Below, one piece after another: positions 1,261-55,947 of a stretch of 64,000 nt of DNA. Numbering within the stretch: position 1 is the first letter of the stretch; every line of letters starts with the position of its first letter. The stretch comes from an uncultured Candidatus Saccharibacteria bacterium (GTDB lineage: Bacteria > Patescibacteriota > Saccharimonadia > Saccharimonadales > UBA10212). The DNA is taken from NCBI GenBank assembly GCA_965231085.1, contig OZ246413.1:475234-539233 (forward strand), read 5' to 3'. Below the pieces are notes generated by a model, which was given only the letters and a program-made list of their open reading frames with translations, did not search any database and was not told the origin of the DNA. A program made the position numbers and the translations under genes.

Positions 1261-2572
1261 GTCGTCCAAAATATTCTTCGGCTTTTCGTGATAATTTAGC
1301 GGTTTTGTATTTTTCCCATAATTGCTGCTCCTCCTCGTTCAGGCTTTTTGGGAAATTCCTGGCTTTATATAATGGCAGTAAAAATTTTAGCCGATCATCC
1401 ACAAAATCTATACTCAGGTCTGCTAGTTTATCTTCATCCGCCGCTCGAATGACTCGTTGCTTAACTTTGTCGCTATCATTTATAAAACCGGCGTAAAGTA
1501 AACCATCTACATTGAGTTCATCAACCACGAGTTCTTCTTGATATGGTTTCTGTTTTATAGCTAGTGCTTCTATTAATTTATCTCCAAAATCTTCAATCCT
1601 ACGGAGTTTCTCTAGGTGATTATTAATAATTTTTTTGTGAAGTTTTAACCTTTTTTCGCTAGCTTCGTCTAGCACGCTCAGAGGAGCAAGCGCCGGACAG
1701 CGATTATAGGCTAATACCTTTACCGGAAAGTAGGGGGCGTCCGGGCCCCTAGCCTGCCATTTATGCGCCAGTTCGGCTGGGCTCAAATCTCTAAATTCAT
1801 CCGGATCTAACCGCAAGTCATACATTAATGAAGCACCACGCTCTGGCTGCCTAGTCACCATCACAGCAATAGTCGTCTTCTCAAAATCTGCCGGATATCT
1901 GCCGCTAGTGTACAGCAGTGGTTCTTGTGAATTTACTAGCGCCGCTACTTTTGTTTTGTCGCGTAAGTTTAGTAGGTACTCAAATAATTTTGGCTGTTTT
2001 TTCTTAATAAGCCTAGCTAGTTCAATAGTAGCCCTAACATCACTAAGGGCATCGTGAGCGTCGTCGTGACTTAGTTTATTTACGGAAGTTATGAGCTCAA
2101 GCTTGTTGCTTGGCTTGCCATCCGGAGCAAAAGGCCACTTTATACCACCCGGGCGCAACGCTCGAGTCATCCTGGTTACATCTAGTAAGTCCCAGGTGCT
2201 AGTGCCATTCTTCCAGGACCATTCATAAGCGTCATAAAAATTGCGCCACAATGTAAAACGAATAAAGTCGTTATCAAAACGCAAATTATTATAACCAACA
2301 AATATAGTACCTTCTGCCGCCAGCTCGTCCATGAAATATTTACAAAAAGCTGCTTCCGTTATTCCTTCGCTTAATGTTTGCTGTGGCGTTATACCGGTAA
2401 CGAGTATCGCTTCGGGGCTGGGCAAGATATCACTTGTGAGCTTTATTAATATATTATCCGGCTCGCCAATCGGCTTAAGATTCAAGTCTGTACGTTGTCC
2501 AGCAAACTGCATGATATGATCATCTCTTGGGCTAAACCCACTAGTTTCTAGATCATAAAAGTAGAAAGTCAT
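1163..2572 (-). CDS. sbcB: exodeoxyribonuclease I-like DEDDh exonuclease
   Basis: 469 aa. N-terminal exonuclease motifs FYDLETSG, VGYNNLRFD and HDALSDV, followed by a long SbcB-type C-terminal domain. Confidence 0.8.
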   Translation of the reverse strand: MTFYFYDLETSGFSPRDDHIMQFAGQRTDLNLKPIGEPDNILIKLTSDILPSPEAILVTGITPQQTLSEGITEAAFCKYFMDELAAEGTIFVGYNNLRFDNDFIRFTLWRNFYDAYEWSWKNGTSTWDLLDVTRMTRALRPGGIKWPFAPDGKPSNKLELITSVNKLSHDDAHDALSDVRATIELARLIKKKQPKLFEYLLNLRDKTKVAALVNSQEPLLYTSGRYPADFEKTTIAVMVTRQPERGASLMYDLRLDPDEFRDLSPAELAHKWQARGPDAPYFPVKVLAYNRCPALAPLSVLDEASEKRLKLHKKIINNHLEKLRRIEDFGDKLIEALAIKQKPYQEELVVDELNVDGLLYAGFINDSDKVKQRVIRAADEDKLADLSIDFVDDRLKFLLPLYKARNFPKSLNEEEQQLWEKYKTAKLSRKAEEYFGRLNELLASVGSNAEERYLLQELQLWGESILPSA

Positions 2573-5309: not shown

Positions 5310-6365
5310 TTACTGGGACAGAGCGCAGTTCTTACAGTGCTGGGAGATTGCCTGATTGTGCTCGGCTTGGGTTCGTGAAAAGTACATTTTGCCATCATCG
5401 CCAGCTATAAAATATAGGTAATCTGTGGTGTCAGGATGAGCCACAGCCTTTAAGGCGTTGTCGGTAACATTGCTGATTGGTCCTGGAGGCAAACCCTTTA
5501 TCAGATAAGTATTGTAGGGCGAGTCTATAGTAACGTCCCTAGTTTTACCAGCAATATCTGCCGCATAATTAGCAGTTACGTTAGACTGCAACATCATCCC
5601 AATAGAAAGTCTGGATAAAAAGACCTGCGCCACGGTTGGCATATAGGTTGTATCGCCCGTTTCTTGATAAACAATCGAAGTTAAGATAATTCCCTGATAC
5701 GGGCTAAGGCCATGATTCGCAAAATCTGCGATTATATCTGCACTTAGGTGCTTCTCCATCTCGTCTAGAGACTCTCTAACGATTGTCTCCGCCGACGTTT
5801 CAGTAGTTTTCTGAAAGGAATCTGGGTACAAAAAACCTTCTAGGCTGGCGCCCTTTGGTAGGTACTTGAGTACGGGGTGACCAAGATAATTACTAGCGTT
5901 AAAAGCTCTGTCTATTTGTGCGGCTGTATAGCCAGCTTTTGAGAAAGCTTCTTTTATCTCATCAATCCGCTTGCCCGGCAGTATTGTTAGCAAGTTTTTG
6001 GCTACGTCGCCGCTAATCATTTTGGCCACGATTTGCTGAACACTCATAGATGGGCTGATGATATAAGTCCCAGCTTGTAATTTTTCATTAAGTTCGTTGG
6101 TTCTAAGATAATTTTTAAACGCACTCGAGCTTTTTATGAGCCCGGCGTTTTTTAGCCCACTAGCTATTTTATCAACGCTCATTCCGCTACTTACCGTAAA
6201 GTAGGTGGTAGTCGTAGAACTAGATACTGGTTTTAGGCTATTTATATAGACTGTTCTAACCATAAAAGTGCCAATGATTAAAACAATTATTGAAATTATA
6301 AGAAGCGTCGGTAAGTGTTTGAGCCTGCCAATCAGTCTGGTTAATAGTTTCTTCTTTTTTGCCAT
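5310..6365 (-). CDS. mltG: endolytic murein transglycosylase MltG (YceG family)
   Basis: N-terminal TM helix then a YceG-like domain (PYNTYLIKGLPPGPISN, YLYFIAGDDGKMYFSRT). The ATG at 6365 abuts the ruvX stop; the track ORF is extended to 6443. Confidence 0.85.
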   Translation of the reverse strand: MAKKKKLLTRLIGRLKHLPTLLIISIIVLIIGTFMVRTVYINSLKPVSSSTTTTYFTVSSGMSVDKIASGLKNAGLIKSSSAFKNYLRTNELNEKLQAGTYIISPSMSVQQIVAKMISGDVAKNLLTILPGKRIDEIKEAFSKAGYTAAQIDRAFNASNYLGHPVLKYLPKGASLEGFLYPDSFQKTTETSAETIVRESLDEMEKHLSADIIADFANHGLSPYQGIILTSIVYQETGDTTYMPTVAQVFLSRLSIGMMLQSNVTANYAADIAGKTRDVTIDSPYNTYLIKGLPPGPISNVTDNALKAVAHPDTTDYLYFIAGDDGKMYFSRTQAEHNQAISQHCKNCALSQ

Positions 6366-27267: not shown

Positions 27268-27894
27268 TTATTTTCTGGATTCTTGGAAAATTTTCTCTAC
27301 GAGTTCTTTTCGAGCGTAAAAAGCACGACTAATTGAGCCGTGCCCGGGCCCTTTAGTTCGAGCTTGAATCCATTTACCATCGCTGCCAGTAAGCGCATCA
27401 AAACCGTGTGCTCTTAGTTTGTTTCTAATAAATTCATAGTCTTGCTCAATTTCTTTTATAAGTTCTGAGTCTTCAACAAAATCCATGCTAGTAACATCTA
27501 TCAGGATTGCTGATTGTGAATTCGTTTCTTTCCATTCAATTGCACACAATACCAACGACTTCAGCTTAGCCCAGCAGTGACTTTCAAAAAAAGAATGTTG
27601 CAATAATTCATCGGGGTTAATCATAGTGATAGCCATAGTTTCTTTTGGAACGTACGTGTTTATGCCTGTTTTTCTAAAACTAACTGATTTCAATTCAAAC
27701 GATAAACCATTTGGAGCCTTCTTGGAATTATTAGAAAGACCCGCCAACTTCTCGAGAACTAAACCTTTCCATCCTTTATTTTGCCTACCTGTTTCATAAG
27801 TCGTAACTCCGTTTTCAACAGCCAAAGTACGTAGGTCTTGCCCGATATATTGCCTCAAATTGTTGATAGCGACGGCCCGTGTTACTATTTTCAC
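27268..27894 (-). CDS. type II restriction endonuclease, MutH/Sau3AI-like fold
   Basis: NKGWKGLVLEKLAG...APNGLSFELKSV resembles the MutH/Sau3AI core (DKGWVGxLLExxLG...ELKT). The GTG start overlaps the methyltransferase TGA stop (GTGA at 27891-27894). Confidence 0.65.
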   Translation of the reverse strand: MKIVTRAVAINNLRQYIGQDLRTLAVENGVTTYETGRQNKGWKGLVLEKLAGLSNNSKKAPNGLSFELKSVSFRKTGINTYVPKETMAITMINPDELLQHSFFESHCWAKLKSLVLCAIEWKETNSQSAILIDVTSMDFVEDSELIKEIEQDYEFIRNKLRAHGFDALTGSDGKWIQARTKGPGHGSISRAFYARKELVEKIFQESRK

Positions 27895-28763
27895 AAAATT
27901 TTTCCTTGTTTGATTTGATCTTTATACCTTTTGACTGATAAATCAAGGTAATCTTTTTCTAGGTCAATGCCAATAAACTTTCGTCCGTGCTTTGTTGCCA
28001 CTATTCCAGTGGTTGAGCTTCCACTGAAGGGGTCGAGAATAACATCGCCTTTATTCGTGGATGATAGTATTATGCGTTCGAGTAAGGCAACCGGTTTTTG
28101 TGTCGGGTGTTTGCCATAAATTTTTTCTTCTCGTTTTGGTGTGCCAAGCGCCCATACAGAACGCATTTGCTTTCCTTTTTCGTGAATTATCTCAACCGAT
28201 TCCTCTTTACCAGTAATTTTGCTTCTAAAAACTTTTCTATAGTTATCTTCCCAGTCTTTCATAACTTCATAGTTAAAAGTATGTTTGCCCTTCGGATTTT
28301 TGCGCGCCCACAATAATGTTTCGTGACTAGCTGTAAAAAATCTGCAGCTCAAATTTGGTGAGGCGTTTGGCTTGAACCATGCAATATCATTAAGTATTTT
28401 GTAGCCCAAAAGCTGAATGGCATAACCACATTGATAGATTGAGTGATATGTCCCACTTACCCAAATTGTGCCGTTTGGTTTGAGCACTCGGTAGCATTCT
28501 TCAAGCCACCTAGTATGAAACGCGAAGTCTGCTTCGACGCCCTCGCTCTCGTCCCATTTACCTTTGTTCACACTCACACGCCTACCAGCGTGGACTGTAA
28601 AACCACCATTTGAAAGATTGTATGGCGGATCGGCAAAAATCATATCAATACTATTTTCAGGTATTTGTTTTAGAAGCTCGATTGAGTCGTCTTCATAGAG
28701 GACGAAATTCTTGTCCGCAAAAAAAGGCTTTGTAGTGATTCCCCCGAGTATTTTCTGACTCAT
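27891..28763 (-). CDS. DNA methyltransferase, beta-class N6-adenine/N4-cytosine
   Basis: Motif IV FADPPYNL precedes motif I ILDPFSGSSTTG (the beta-class order). 290 aa. Confidence 0.85.
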   Translation of the reverse strand: MSQKILGGITTKPFFADKNFVLYEDDSIELLKQIPENSIDMIFADPPYNLSNGGFTVHAGRRVSVNKGKWDESEGVEADFAFHTRWLEECYRVLKPNGTIWVSGTYHSIYQCGYAIQLLGYKILNDIAWFKPNASPNLSCRFFTASHETLLWARKNPKGKHTFNYEVMKDWEDNYRKVFRSKITGKEESVEIIHEKGKQMRSVWALGTPKREEKIYGKHPTQKPVALLERIILSSTNKGDVILDPFSGSSTTGIVATKHGRKFIGIDLEKDYLDLSVKRYKDQIKQGKIL

Positions 28764-36791: not shown

Positions 36792-37201
36792 TGGTGGAGC
36801 TGGTGGGTATCACACCCACGTCCGATTGGTAATAACTTAGATGACTACAGGCTTATTTCGCTTGAATTGCTTCTTTAGCTCAAAGCTCTAAAAACGAACC
36901 AAAAGAGCCATAGCTGCAACCCTAAAGTCTTAGCGGTCTTGATGGGTCACCAAGTCCGAGCGTCCAGATAAATATGACACGCTTACCCGTTATCTGAAGT
37001 CACGAAGAAAGCGTGGCAAGTAGAAATTAAGCTACTGCTGGTGCGAAAGAAAATGCACTTGGCGCAAAAGCGCTAGCCACAAAATTCTTTACGCGTGCAA
37101 AAGTATTTGCATTTGTTGTGTTGATCCGGCTAACGTGCAGATCGAGCCGGCCTGCCAGTCTAAATTATTAATGTCCTATCGTCGAGCTTAAATTCAGCCC
37201 C
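36792..37201 (-). ncRNA. ssrA: tmRNA (ssrA)
   Basis: Minus strand starts GGGGCTGAATTTAAGCTCGAC and ends GGACGTGGGTGTGATACCCACCAGCTCCACCA (T-arm, acceptor with G3-U70, CCA). Candidate tag ORF 37110-37027: ANTFARVKNFVASAFAPSAFSFAPAVA-stop. Confidence 0.85.
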
Positions 37202-45717: not shown

Positions 45718-45774
45718 AGGTTTCCCACCATTTTTATATCTGTAATTAGTATGTCAAAAAGCTTCTTGTAAATC

Positions 45775-45806
45775 CAACAAAAAAGACCTCTCGGTTAGAG
45801 AAGTCC
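45775..45806 (-). terminator. intrinsic terminator following element copy 1
   Basis: Minus strand reads GACTTCTC-TAACC-GAGAGGTC followed by TTTTTG, starting 3 nt after the CCA of the duplicated tRNA end. Confidence 0.6.
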
Positions 45807-45809
45807 CTT

Positions 45810-46002
45810 TTGGTGATCCCAAGGGGAGTCGAGTCACCTTCGGCGACCCCCGAACTTCTCGATTGCCAACAAGTTGGTATCGGAAGATTCGTTTCCGAAC
45901 TGCCTTCTTGGCAGTTCTCACCCTATTGCCTCCGGCAATTAGTATTCGACGCTCAGTGAAATCAATCTAAAAAGCCCACCCTATCGGGTGAGCATTTTAG
46001 AT
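45810..46002 (-). repeat. 193-bp tRNA-3'-end-linked structured element, copy 1 (downstream of tRNA-Glu)
   Basis: 45810-45831 is identical to the last 22 nt of tRNA-Glu (46003-46024). The conserved core is shared with 55678-55788 (identical blocks ggcgacccccgaacttct, ttcgtttccgaactgcc, ggcagttctcaccc). No ORF. Confidence 0.75.
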
Positions 46003-46077
46003 TGGTGATCCCAAGGGGAGTCGAACCCCTATTGCCGGGATGAAAACCCGATTTCCTAACCATTAGAAGATGGGACC
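46003..46077 (-). tRNA. tRNA-Glu (anticodon UUC)
   Basis: Hand-folded cloverleaf: acceptor GGTCCCA/TGGGATC, anticodon arm TCGGG-TTTTCAT-CCCGG, T-arm AGGGG-TTCGACT-CCCCT, encoded CCA. Confidence 0.85.
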
Positions 46078-46368
46078 TGAACAGAGGGATTTTAGCACAA
46101 TCACCCCTGATTTACCAAAAAACCCTCATAAGCTACTCCACCTAGCTTAGAGGGTAATTGGTTTTTTAGATTTTAGTTTTTTAGTGTCTACTTGCGCAGA
46201 CTAGAGCGGTCAGTCACGATTACTCTAACTAAACACTAGCACAATACGGCTAGTTTGGCAACCCCGAACCAAAATCTTGAGGCTTCGAGATTGGGATATT
46301 CTCCCTCTTCTAGCCTCAGGATTTGGTCACGGGGCAGGACCGTTTGTCCACACCCTCTTTAGGAGTGC

Positions 46369-47386: not shown

Positions 47387-48931
47387 TCACCCGCCGATGC
47401 AGTTGCCCATCTGGTCGGCCGGGGCGAACCCGATGGTGCCGTTCAGATGCCAGCACTGCTGGTTGCCTGAGCCGGTTGAACCGGGCGAGCCGCCCGCACC
47501 CACCGAGCCTCCGGGGCCGTTGCCGACCCCGAGGGACGGATTCTTGGGCTGCGGGGTGATGGGTGTCGTGGTGGTCGGCGGCGTGGTGGTCGGGGGAGAC
47601 TGGGTCGTCTCCGTGACCTGATTGTTGAACTTCAGGTCTCCCGACACGCCGACGATCCAGGTCCTACACAGCTGCCCGTCCTTGGGCTGCATGTGCATCC
47701 CTGCGAGCCAGTCGCTGCGCTCGCAGGCCTTGATCTTGGTGCCCTTCACGACGGGGATGGGAGTGCCATCGGCGTACGGAAGGATGTGGGGCTGGCAGTC
47801 GATAGCGGCGATGTTCGAGTCGAACTCGGCACCGTTGTCGACCGTGACCTTGAGCGGCAGCTTGATGCCGGCGTAGCCGGCGTAGTCGGCTGCCACTGCA
47901 GGCCCGGAGGCCTTGGTCAGGCACTTGCTCACTCCGGCGATGCCGGAGGTCGGGATGGCGGGGCTGGTCACGACTCCGCCCTTCTTCGGACGGTTGTAGA
48001 AGATCCAGTCGTTGCCTGCCCGATCGACGTGATCGAGCACCCAGTCCTTCGCCGGCACCTCGGACACGACACACTTGGCGCCGGCCGGGATACCGTAGTG
48101 GATGGGCTGACCGTTGTTCCAGCGGCGAACCTGCTGGTATGACGACGGGTTTGTGCAACGGATATCGAACAGGAAGTTGACGCGCCCGGTGAACCCGAGC
48201 GTGATCTTCCTGATCGAGCCACGGCTGGGCTTCGGAGCGGCCTTCGCTGGCCCGCAGTTGAGGGTGTTCTTGTTCCCCCCGACCTGCGAGCAGTTGTCGG
48301 CCGTGATGATGCCACCGCAGCCTGCGACGACTGCACCAGGGCTGTTGGTGACGGTCACCTTGCACCCCGCGGGGGGATTGCCTTGGGTGACCGTCTTAGC
48401 CGGTGCCGGTGCCGGCGTCGACTTCTTGACGGTGGGCGGCGGAGCCGCGACACGCGCGATCGGCACGACGTTCGAGCAGACCATCGCGAACTTCACGATG
48501 ATCTTGCCGCCGTCAGGCAGTACACCCGTGACCTTCCAGGCCGCGAGCGTCCCACCGGTGAGCCGACCGCTCACGAAGGTCTCGTGAGCGCCGGACATGA
48601 CGCCGAAGTAGCTGTTCTGCAGGATCCAGTCCTTGGTCGCCGACGAGGCACCCTTGATCAGGGCCGTCTGCTCGGCGGGGCTGAGACCCGCGCAGTGCAT
48701 CGCCCGCTTGCCGGCCGTGCTCGAGAGCGCGGAGTGAAGCTGGCTGGGGCTGTAGACCCCACCCTTGACGACTGCGTCGCCTCCGGGATGCCGCCAGTCG
48801 GCCTGTCGGACCTTGCAGTCGGCAGGAACACGGAACTGCGGGTTTGCCGCGGACGCGCTGAGCGCGCCGAACGCGGCGAGAATGGCCGCGACCACCAAAG
48901 CGGTGATTGCGGACTTCTTCGTAACGGCCAT
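47387..48931 (-). CDS. 514-aa secreted Cys-rich protein with a Pro/Thr linker, GC-rich cassette D
   Basis: GGAGGTGG lies 6 nt before the ATG at 48931. Signal peptide MAVTKKSAITALVVAAILAAFGALSASA. PPTTTPPTTTTP linker and a Gly-rich C-terminus. Several overlapping ORFs in other frames are high-GC artefacts. Confidence 0.75.
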   Translation of the reverse strand: MAVTKKSAITALVVAAILAAFGALSASAANPQFRVPADCKVRQADWRHPGGDAVVKGGVYSPSQLHSALSSTAGKRAMHCAGLSPAEQTALIKGASSATKDWILQNSYFGVMSGAHETFVSGRLTGGTLAAWKVTGVLPDGGKIIVKFAMVCSNVVPIARVAAPPPTVKKSTPAPAPAKTVTQGNPPAGCKVTVTNSPGAVVAGCGGIITADNCSQVGGNKNTLNCGPAKAAPKPSRGSIRKITLGFTGRVNFLFDIRCTNPSSYQQVRRWNNGQPIHYGIPAGAKCVVSEVPAKDWVLDHVDRAGNDWIFYNRPKKGGVVTSPAIPTSGIAGVSKCLTKASGPAVAADYAGYAGIKLPLKVTVDNGAEFDSNIAAIDCQPHILPYADGTPIPVVKGTKIKACERSDWLAGMHMQPKDGQLCRTWIVGVSGDLKFNNQVTETTQSPPTTTPPTTTTPITPQPKNPSLGVGNGPGGSVGAGGSPGSTGSGNQQCWHLNGTIGFAPADQMGNCIGG

Positions 48932-49254
48932 CGAAACCACCTCCTAGGTGATCGCGGTTTGTCGGGTGGCCTACCCGATCTGCTAGGCTTAGCAAGACAC
49001 AAAACCAATAAATAATTACGGGCTTGGTGTCTTGCTAGACTCTAAAACAGATGAACATTGGTAGTCGGTTATGTGGGTATTAAAACCCAATAACTATCTA
49101 GTTTGCTCTAATTTAGTATTTGTTATCTAAATCAGGTACAAACAGTCTGAATTGTTAAGGGATTCCCTCCTCCACCTCTGTGGCGAAGATGACCATATTC
49201 TAACAGATGTGAATACTTTTGTCAATATGCTTGTGTTTTTTAAGATGTTTATAA

Positions 49255-55677: not shown

Positions 55678-55870
55678 TGGAGGGCCAGGCGGGACTCGGT
55701 CGCCTCCGGCGACCCCCGAACTTCTACCTAGCAAACAAGTTTGCAGGTGAAGGTTCGTTTCCGAACTGCCCCGGCAGTTCTCACCCCCGACGTTCTTTTT
55801 GATATGTCGTGGAAACGAGCCCGCTGCTCATGCCAATGAAAAGACCCCACGCAAGGTGAGGTCATTTCAC
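55678..55870 (-). repeat. 193-bp tRNA-3'-end-linked structured element, copy 2 (downstream of tRNA-Lys)
   Basis: 55678-55698 is identical to the last 21 nt of tRNA-Lys (55871-55891), again at an offset of exactly 193 bp. The core is homologous to 45832-45923 with compensatory helix changes. No ORF. Confidence 0.75.
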
Positions 55871-55947
55871 TGGAGGGCCAGGCGGGACTCGAACCCGCGA
55901 CATTCTGCTTAAGAGGCAGACGCTCTAACCAGCTGAGCTACTGGCCC
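55871..55947 (-). tRNA. tRNA-Lys (anticodon CUU)
   Basis: Hand-folded: acceptor GGGCCAG/CTGGCCC, anticodon arm TCTGC-CTCTTAA-GCAGA, T-arm GCGGG-TTCGAGT-CCCGC, encoded CCA. Confidence 0.85.

Follow-up and report, generated by a model that had tools for sequence, protein, structure and literature searches.

A structured module of about 87 nucleotides within partial tRNA copies beside intact tRNA genes of Candidatus Saccharibacteria

The DNA analysed here (the window) is a stretch of 64,000 nucleotides (nt) from an uncultured Candidatus Saccharibacteria bacterium (assembly GCA_965231085.1, contig OZ246413.1, positions 475,234 to 539,233). Downstream of two of its tRNA genes, for glutamate and lysine, lies a unit in which a partial copy of the same tRNA is interrupted by a short folded insert, referred to below as the module. 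An earlier note, made by a model from the sequence alone, had described the first of these as a structured element ending in a copy of the tRNA-Glu 3' end. The Glu unit (~192 bp) was located between tRNA-Glu and pgk (assigned by Pfam PGK), and the features of this locus, in window positions and in the direction of the tRNA gene, were as follows.

46003-46077, minus strand: intact tRNA-Glu(UUC) with encoded CCA (ARAGORN; Rfam tRNA, 57.5 bits)
45963-46004, minus strand: T1, terminator-like hairpin after tRNA-Glu, with the stem at 45974-45993 and then a T run (terminator scan)
45932-45963, minus strand: degenerate inverted copy of tRNA-Glu positions ~73 to 40, GATTTCACTGAGCGTCGAATACTAATTGCCGG, without the module
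45921-45930, minus strand: x', short 5' flank, GGCAATAGGG, equal to tRNA-Glu 42-51 (direct repeat, and hairpin in the predicted fold)
45833-45920, minus strand: module I, Glu copy, 88 nt (cmsearch 94.1 bits, E = 1.7e-20; covariation)
45811-45832, minus strand: Y, long 3' arm, the exact last 22 nt of tRNA-Glu from the T-loop through CCA (repeat search)
45778-45812, minus strand: T2, terminator-like hairpin after the interrupted Glu copy, upstream of pgk (terminator scan)
45744-45775, minus strand: tentative second, more decayed inverted copy behind T2 (alignment of the stretches that follow T2 and T1)

The 3' end of tRNA-Glu, TCGACTCCCCTTGGGATCACCA on the minus strand, occurred at both 46003-46024 and 45811-45832, with 0 matches expected by chance. 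This is the exact 22-nt repeat that had been reported before, although its second copy had been placed one position off, at 45810-45831. One more shared base extended the direct repeat to 23 nt (45810-45832 and 46002-46024) at a spacing of 192. Similarly, the shared 10-nt block GGCAATAGGG was real, and was placed by a repeat finder at 46027-46036 and 45921-45930 (not 45920-45929). T1 was an inverted repeat with arms at 45963-45981 and 45986-46004 (89% complementary), the extended stem of which takes in the CCA end. The inverted copy GATTTCACTGAGCGTCGAATACTAATTGCCGG matched the reverse complement of the tRNA at 22 of 32 bases (counted by eye), and was much more legible in the orthologous unit of another species (locus L030) than in the window. 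In predicted folds, x' paired with the end of the inverted copy over a 1-nt loop at 45931. The Glu module (UGA, P1, GGAAA, P2/P3, GGG, and P4) took the place of GT (positions 52-53) of the tRNA copy. As judged from the alignment, 45744-45775 may be the remnant of an older unit, now overlapping the predicted pgk promoter.

The features of the tRNA-Lys locus were closely similar.

55871-55947, minus strand: intact tRNA-Lys(CUU) with encoded CCA (ARAGORN and Rfam)
55843-55863, minus strand: T1 of the Lys locus, terminator-like hairpin (terminator scan)
55801-55827, minus strand: degenerate, uninterrupted inverted copy of the tRNA-Lys T-arm and variable region
55784-55795, minus strand: x', short 5' flank, GAACGTCGGGGG (the tRNA reads GAATGTCGCGGG; direct repeat)
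55699-55783, minus strand: module I, Lys copy, 85 nt (cmsearch 96.4 bits, E = 4.8e-21)
55678-55698, minus strand: Y, long 3' arm, the exact last 21 nt of tRNA-Lys (repeat search)

The 21-nt repeat of tRNA-Lys (55871-55891 and 55678-55698; 0 chance matches expected) had a spacing of 193. An offset of 193 had been claimed for both loci, and this was correct for Lys, whereas the spacing at Glu was 192. The near-equal offsets arise because the units share one architecture, and are not a coincidence. An inverted repeat with arms at 55804-55822 and 55885-55903 was 74% complementary, and in the minimum-energy fold the inverted copy paired with the sequences on either side of the module. A loop of AAAAA (55796-55800) precedes the x' flank, and the module stands in for TT (54-55) of the tRNA copy, as read from the missing TT in the sequence. 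The Lys locus had the first hairpin only: no second canonical terminator was detected after its arm Y by the terminator scan.

Two 17-mers of the insert were each restricted, within the window, to the Glu and Lys loci, and a covariance model placed the module at both, confirming the earlier claim of a split tRNA copy with a conserved insert. A two-block insert pattern was searched against a species-representative genome collection, and occurred at 38 loci in 26 Saccharibacteria assemblies (up to 4 loci per assembly); all source assemblies were Candidatus Saccharibacteria/Saccharimonadales, except for two bins with labels that were uninformative or probably wrong. The covariance model was built from an alignment of 28 copies from other genomes (mean identity, 86%) and detected 45 copies across the 38 loci and the window, of which only two were in the window. 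Divergent sub-types were among these 45 copies, with further covariation in P1 and at the base of P2. The supported fold was 5' UGA, P1 (8 bp), GGAAA, P2/P3 (a long bulged hairpin), GGG, and P4 (6 bp) 3'. Among the 28 copies, 96% of cells were paired, versus 24-41% when partners were slid by 1-3 columns, and 77 cells were changed on both sides, versus 26 +/- 5 in shuffles. The compensatory helix changes noticed between the two loci of the window were, therefore, real and upheld by the scan of related genomes that had been suggested as a check. One pair of P4 was G.U in 26 of the 28 copies, and nearly all one-sided changes yielded G.U, indicating that the folded strand is the tRNA-sense strand (minus in the window, as had been proposed). 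All 45 copies were co-oriented with the tRNA sequence. The ~87-nt module is, thus, a structured element with three hairpins backed by covariation.

No match between the module and any Rfam 15 family was found at the gathering score or at E <= 10, where only tRNA and noise appeared, in agreement with the earlier failure to name an RNA family. A description of the module family was not found in Rfam 15 or in the searchable literature on tRNA introns, insertions, and partial tRNAs of Saccharibacteria/Patescibacteria; the latter only yielded papers on group I introns that do not describe the module. The module was also absent from the viral contigs of IMG/VR, as searched with two conserved patterns (the first gave three chance 17-mer hits, which the model rejected, and the second gave none). 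It constitutes a repeat family of environmental Saccharibacteria (TM7) that we could not find described. Module identity was 0.90 within a genome, 0.856 between genomes at the same site, and 0.84 otherwise. An identical module was present in three copies, at three different tRNA sites in three assemblies, while the Glu and Lys modules of the window were only ~80% identical.

The flanks of the module were always same-orientation pieces of a tRNA, and the base preceding the module was G in every copy examined. At all exactly mapped sites (25/25), the module stood in for exactly 2 nt of the tRNA copy. Four positions were occupied (the D-loop, 25/26, 38/39, and 54/55) in at least eight tRNA species: Lys (UUU and CUU), Leu (UAG, CAG, and GAG), Glu, Pro (three anticodons), Arg (two), Gln (two), Thr, and Gly. 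By site, the lost dinucleotide was as follows: in the hinge that joins the D- and anticodon arms (linear positions 26-27), CA or CG; in the anticodon loop (39-40), AG or GT; in the T-loop (about 53-56), TT or GT; and in the D-loop of tRNA-Gln, GT (read by eye). Pairing between module loops and target flanks, as a recognition code, showed no correlation in the alignment.

Two mirror-image layouts were observed. In layout A, found in the window, the intact tRNA is followed by T1, a spacer, x' (10-12 nt of tRNA), the module, and Y through CCA, often with T2. In layout B, a promoter is followed by the 5' part of the tRNA (X), the module, y' (8-12 nt of tRNA), a spacer, and the intact tRNA. In both, the tRNA remnant on the side of the module facing the intact gene was only 8-12 nt. 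At downstream-type loci in which the intact tRNA was located, the distance from the tRNA end to the module start was mostly 72-90 nt, with outliers of 51 and 204. An intact gene lay alongside in most loci with available flanks, and one tRNA-Lys (L016) was flanked by an upstream unit with the 5' arm and a downstream unit with the 3' arm. The copy of the tRNA 3' end in the window is, therefore, the long arm of an interrupted tRNA copy, not a free-standing mimic.

Three features had been overlooked in the earlier note: the exact 2-nt loss, the nature of the opening hairpin, and an inverted, uninterrupted copy of the target. The terminator-like hairpins were present as described (here placed at 45974-45993 and 45778-45812); however, that opening the unit is the tRNA's own duplicated terminator. 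The spacer between the intact gene and the interrupted copy repeated the same tRNA segment in inverted orientation, in a more or less decayed state. In legible T-loop units, this inverted copy crossed the insertion point without a module, and in most of them it retained the complement of the 2 lost bases (e.g., CTTGAACC... opposite GG|TT|CAAG), indicating that it was copied from an uninterrupted target. Each locus, thus, has the order sense (intact), antisense, and sense (interrupted), or the mirror image upstream. The first turning point was the terminator hairpin in layout A or an AT-rich -10 palindrome in layout B, and the second was a loop of 1-5 nt, 8-12 nt from the module. In predicted folds, a single strand of the unit formed a long hairpin, in which the inverted copy paired both with x' and, spanning the module, with the beginning of Y; the three hairpins of the module branched from one arm, opposite two unpaired bases, and layout B gave the mirror image. 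The distal part of the inverted copy was decaying.

Gain and loss were evident from comparisons of orthologous loci. A metagenome scan with PGK, used to gather orthologous tRNA-Glu loci, yielded two reasonably close relatives. In one of these (L042; PGK 60% identical), the same neighbourhood was present with the upstream block and promoter region kept, while only 86 nt, containing one terminator and no module, separated tRNA-Glu from pgk; the spacer in the window was 285 nt, a difference of about one unit. An empty site, which had been suggested as a check, thus exists. No module was found at the other 78 PGK loci, all of which were distant. The tRNA-Lys loci of different species had a unit on the upstream side alone, on the downstream side alone, or on both, and tRNA-Arg and tRNA-Gly of the window had no units, while the Arg and Gly genes of other genomes did. 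As a separate observation, a block upstream of the tRNA-Glu promoter (GAGTAATCGTGACTGACCGCTCT, 46203-46225, minus strand) was kept at 2204-2226 of L042 despite differing intergenic DNA around it, and may mark where an unannotated RNA ends or serve as a regulatory site.

Units were also layered. Behind the intact Glu unit of L030 (2310-2440, minus strand), T2 was followed by a second inverted copy with a perfect AACCCCTATTGCCGG and a decayed insert of ~75 nt, and a third copy of the tRNA-Glu 3' end was outermost, an arrangement pointing to at least two rounds at one gene. L033 had a third, module-less tRNA copy, and L010, L021, and L031 had extra degenerate 5' copies upstream. In these arrangements, newer units adjoin the gene, with older ones outside and decaying. 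A weak trace of comparable layering was present behind T2 of the window (45744-45775). The extra tRNA-Leu copies of L010 (~5340-5362), L021, and L031 contained a small hairpin insert of ~21 nt (CTGCGTGAAACGCAAGTAATC-like) in the D-loop, replacing AATTG; this may be a different type of insert, or a module that has collapsed.

Two modules had mixed flanks (Lys on the left and Leu on the right at L023 2451-2537; Lys and Pro, respectively, at L027 164-250), which indicates recombination between module copies, and a repeat-induced assembly chimera is possible in the case of L023. An upstream tRNA-Gln pseudo-copy at L026 held two modules, in the D-loop and T-loop. The same locus contained a bare repeat of the tRNA-Gln 3' end (19-21 nt; ~2480-2540, minus strand) without a module, 25 nt downstream of the gene, and the leader and trailer of this tRNA-Gln were inverted repeats of each other. 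The long arm was identical to the cognate tRNA in most loci, whereas the adjoining terminators had diverged to ~60-90%, and the Glu arm followed a species-specific change in the tRNA (TCGACTCCCC in the window versus CGATTCCCC in L030).

No domain of an integrase, recombinase, transposase, or reverse transcriptase was detected by a Pfam scan among the ~55 open reading frames (ORFs) of the window. Apart from one restriction-modification pair, these ORFs encode housekeeping functions, among them pgk and tpi (immediately downstream of the Glu unit), ATP synthase, aminoacyl-tRNA synthetases, and mur genes. GC skew was negative on the plus strand throughout the window, and most genes were on the minus strand, indicating that minus is the leading strand and that the Glu and Lys tRNA genes are co-oriented with replication; their sense strand is, therefore, the lagging-strand template.

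With a little better than even confidence, we consider the module to be, now or until recently, a new, tRNA-gene-specific, non-coding, structured, selfish insertion element, with a mechanism that we infer as follows. The module was only found inside partial tRNA copies directly beside an intact gene. Since the inverted arm keeps un-inserted sequence and is joined by a hairpin to the inserted arm, the arms appear to descend from two strands (or sisters) of the target. The module would enter the sense strand alone, i.e., the lagging-strand template of these co-oriented genes, such that the two arms would derive from two strands (or sisters), only the sense one of which had received the module. 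A fold-back or template switch during replication, pivoting on the terminator or the -10 palindrome, would then capture both arms. The targets are essential and probably single-copy, and insertions not beside an intact copy would be lost, which would explain the uniform architecture. Repeated rounds would push older units outward, where decay would follow. Insertion could be brought about by an enzyme with a gene elsewhere, by host recombination at the highly conserved sequences of the D-arm and T-arm, or by the RNA itself. Inverted triplications are known to arise when replication switches templates at short palindromes (PMC10766186), and the homogenisation of inverted-repeat arms by template switching is likewise a known mutational process (PMC8604942). 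The earlier suggestion of a miniature element that inserts into the T-loop and regenerates the tRNA comes closest to this evidence, but was too narrow, because three other tRNA positions, at least eight tRNA species, and 5'-side units are involved.

Several points weigh against an insertion element. No mobilising enzyme, excised form, or recent burst of identical copies was found, and the two copies in the window are ~80% identical. The arm next to the module is almost always equal to the cognate tRNA while the adjacent terminator has diverged, and the flanking helices are kept; this pattern resembles selection on a functional RNA, if it is not accounted for by gene conversion or palindrome homogenisation. 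The Lys and Leu sites are occupied in many species, which could mean that a useful gene has long been inherited vertically, without re-invasion. The conversion of a single-strand insertion into the sense-antisense-sense order is a reconstruction, and the two-module copy of L026, the sole candidate for a simple insertion, can also be explained by a deletion between direct repeats.

A second explanation, to which we assign a minor but appreciable probability, is a serious rival: a selected small RNA (sRNA) gene, in which the module would be a scaffold that carries one exact half of a tRNA (in downstream units the 3' arm with CCA, in upstream units the 5' arm) and is co-transcribed with the tRNA. 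Its roles might include those of a decoy or competitor that occupies tRNA-binding enzymes or toxins, a partner of cleaved halves, or a regulator of tRNA maturation. The perfect identity (100%) of the long arm in most loci beside terminators of ~60-90%, its tracking of species-specific tRNA changes, the retained module-flanking helices with a consistent predicted multi-way junction, and the persistence of units in streamlined genomes of ~1 Mb despite perfect direct repeats that should favour deletion are all in line with an sRNA; however, arm homogenisation by template switching (PMC8604942) could mimic selection on a hairpin. Regarding expression, upstream-type units keep promoter-like -10/-35 sequences (by eye), and a terminator follows the Glu unit, whereas no promoter-like site was found between T1 and the module at the Glu or Lys locus, and, thus, RNA from the units of the window would need to be produced by read-through of T1. 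Furthermore, the outer, older units decay with only the newest intact, the distal inverted copy is decaying, the orthologous Glu locus of L042 has no unit, and position and side differ between tRNAs, such that no single conserved RNA product emerges. The earlier proposal of an sRNA with a tRNA 3'-end mimic stands as a rival, weakened in that no promoter was found from T1 to the module. It is compatible with an insertion element, and the two are not mutually exclusive.

A third and improbable explanation operates at the level of RNA or single strands: a self-propagating, very small, ribozyme-like element that would place itself in exposed loops, either of tRNAs or of their genes in single-stranded form, and would be fixed in DNA by fold-back copying, or, alternatively, spare tRNA halves on a catalytic or protein-recruiting scaffold that would serve in repairing or replacing cleaved tRNAs, in bacteria with the CCA end encoded in their tRNA genes (all five of those in the window). 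To our knowledge, neither kind of system is known in bacteria.

The last hypothesis of the earlier note, that of att-site remnants, found little support, and we regard it as highly unlikely that the repeats are attL/attR of deleted islands or prophages with tyrosine integrases and that the module is a conserved attP arm. Direct repeats of tRNA 3' ends from the T-loop are reportedly the classic signature of integrase sublocation, and exact repeats of this type bound the insert (22-23 nt for Glu and 21 nt for Lys). As with tRNA-integrating islands, the gene remains intact, the T-loop-to-3' repeat is displaced, and stacking in tandem is possible, the layering of units resembling tandem island arrays. 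In contrast, the present units are ~190 bp (192 bp at Glu), without an integrase in the window and without cargo, and one module serves many tRNAs (at least eight species) at four positions, while a family of such islands would keep to one sublocation, on the 3' side. The mirror units duplicate the 5' part of the tRNA, which, as far as we know, integrases do not do. The target is also copied in inverted orientation, the junction lacks 2 nt, no module was found in IMG/VR, and covariation with strand-specific G.U indicates a folded single strand, not protein-binding duplex DNA.

It is equally hard to credit that the module is a tRNA intron or that the units are split-tRNA genes, from which a tRNA arises by splicing or trans-splicing. 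We know of no self-splicing intron nearly as small as the 87-nt module. Nevertheless, the module is a structured sense insert in tRNA loops, including 38/39, similar to the group I introns that Patescibacteria carry in tRNA genes (PMC13011429), introns in structural-RNA genes being a known trait of this lineage, and to non-canonical or split archaeal tRNA genes, and the tRNA-Lys of L016 is flanked by 5'-arm and 3'-arm units. However, the interrupted copy ends 8-12 nt beyond the module and lacks 2 nt, such that removal of the module yields no tRNA; an intact gene stands beside the copy in most loci with flanks, leaving no need for splicing; and no group I core was matched in Rfam up to E <= 10. 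No bulge-helix-bulge was seen in minimum-energy folds, for which no dedicated search was made. An assembly artefact or chance repeat can be practically dismissed: repeats can generate chimeric contigs, of which L023 is a candidate, but the same architecture with locus-specific flanks occurred in 26 independent assemblies and the window, with 0 chance matches expected.

Some other candidates were considered and rejected. The cores of hammerhead, hepatitis delta virus (HDV), hairpin, and hatchet ribozymes were not matched by eye or in Rfam, and a T-box or Y-RNA-like mimic gave no match. A guide scaffold of the TnpB, IscB, or bridge-RNA type was rejected because no protein gene is adjacent and the flanks are sense rather than guide-like, and a retron non-coding RNA because the window has no reverse transcriptase domain and the units lie at many tRNA loci. 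A tRNA-like acceptor stem from the inverted copy formed for Glu in two species, but not for Lys.

Among known mobile elements, R2-type non-LTR (long terminal repeat) retrotransposons also occupy a defined site in a structural-RNA gene and are co-transcribed with it, and cause a small (2-bp) target deletion, like the 2-nt loss at the module; however, they are eukaryotic and encode a reverse transcriptase and endonuclease with an HDV-like ribozyme, none of which were found here. Miniature repeats (miniature inverted-repeat transposable elements (MITEs), Rickettsia palindromic elements, repetitive extragenic palindromic (REP) sequences, and IS200/IS605-derived repeats) are, like the module, short, non-coding, hairpin-rich, present in several copies per genome, and polymorphic in presence. 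As in a dispersed repeat, up to 4 copies per assembly were present among the fetched loci, and the site in L042 was empty. However, the module is exclusive to tRNA sequence and structurally constrained over its whole length, with the target triplicated as sense-antisense-sense. Its ends (TGAGAAC... and ...GTGAC) were not inverted repeats, and 2 nt of the target were lost, not duplicated, in contrast to the hallmarks of MITEs. Strand-specific folding recalls the single-strand transposition of IS200/IS605-type elements into the lagging-strand template; however, a fixed target motif of 4-5 nt was not observed, only the preceding G, and no Y1 transposase was found in the window. Inverted triplications and tandem inversion duplications (PMC10766186) have the same sense-antisense-sense order joined at short palindromes, with turns at a hairpin and a tiny palindrome, but those here have a scale of tens of bases, recur at many tRNA genes, and always have the module in one of the three copies, i.e., that distal to the intact gene, rather than in all three. 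Since every testable comparator failed at least one defining feature and no description was found in Rfam 15 or the searchable literature, we rated the unit as a new kind of element, its mechanism being reconstructed from sequence comparison.

If mobile, this element would recognise tRNA genes in general, be gene-less, and depend on its fold, and its sense-antisense-sense scar, which spares the essential gene, would appear to record single-strand insertion and repair, events that can seldom be seen in genomes. As a selected RNA, it would represent a family of scaffolded tRNA halves in ultra-small episymbiotic bacteria, the RNA biology of which is largely unexplored. In either case, the units account for odd tRNA "pseudogene" fragments, contig breaks, and chimeras in Saccharibacteria assemblies, and provide a covariance model for annotation and a testable system of 87 nt with defined targets.

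Other parts of the window showed some additional features. The region 47387-49015 had a GC content of about 0.50 (0.44-0.47 elsewhere) and many overlapping ORFs on both strands, the longest of which (517 aa) was not matched in Pfam; the stretch may encode a large protein specific to the lineage or be non-coding. A restriction-modification pair (27268-28763, minus strand) consisted of a MutH/Sau3AI-like endonuclease beside an N4/N6 DNA methyltransferase. A full-length transfer-messenger RNA (tmRNA; 36792-37201, minus strand, 410 nt) was detected by Rfam (80.5 bits), while ARAGORN, which also seeks tmRNA, was silent; this gene may be unusually long or bear an insertion. The 3' regions of the tRNA genes share a design: all five genes in the window encode CCA, and the stems of their terminators extend to pair with it (CCAA.../...TTGG).

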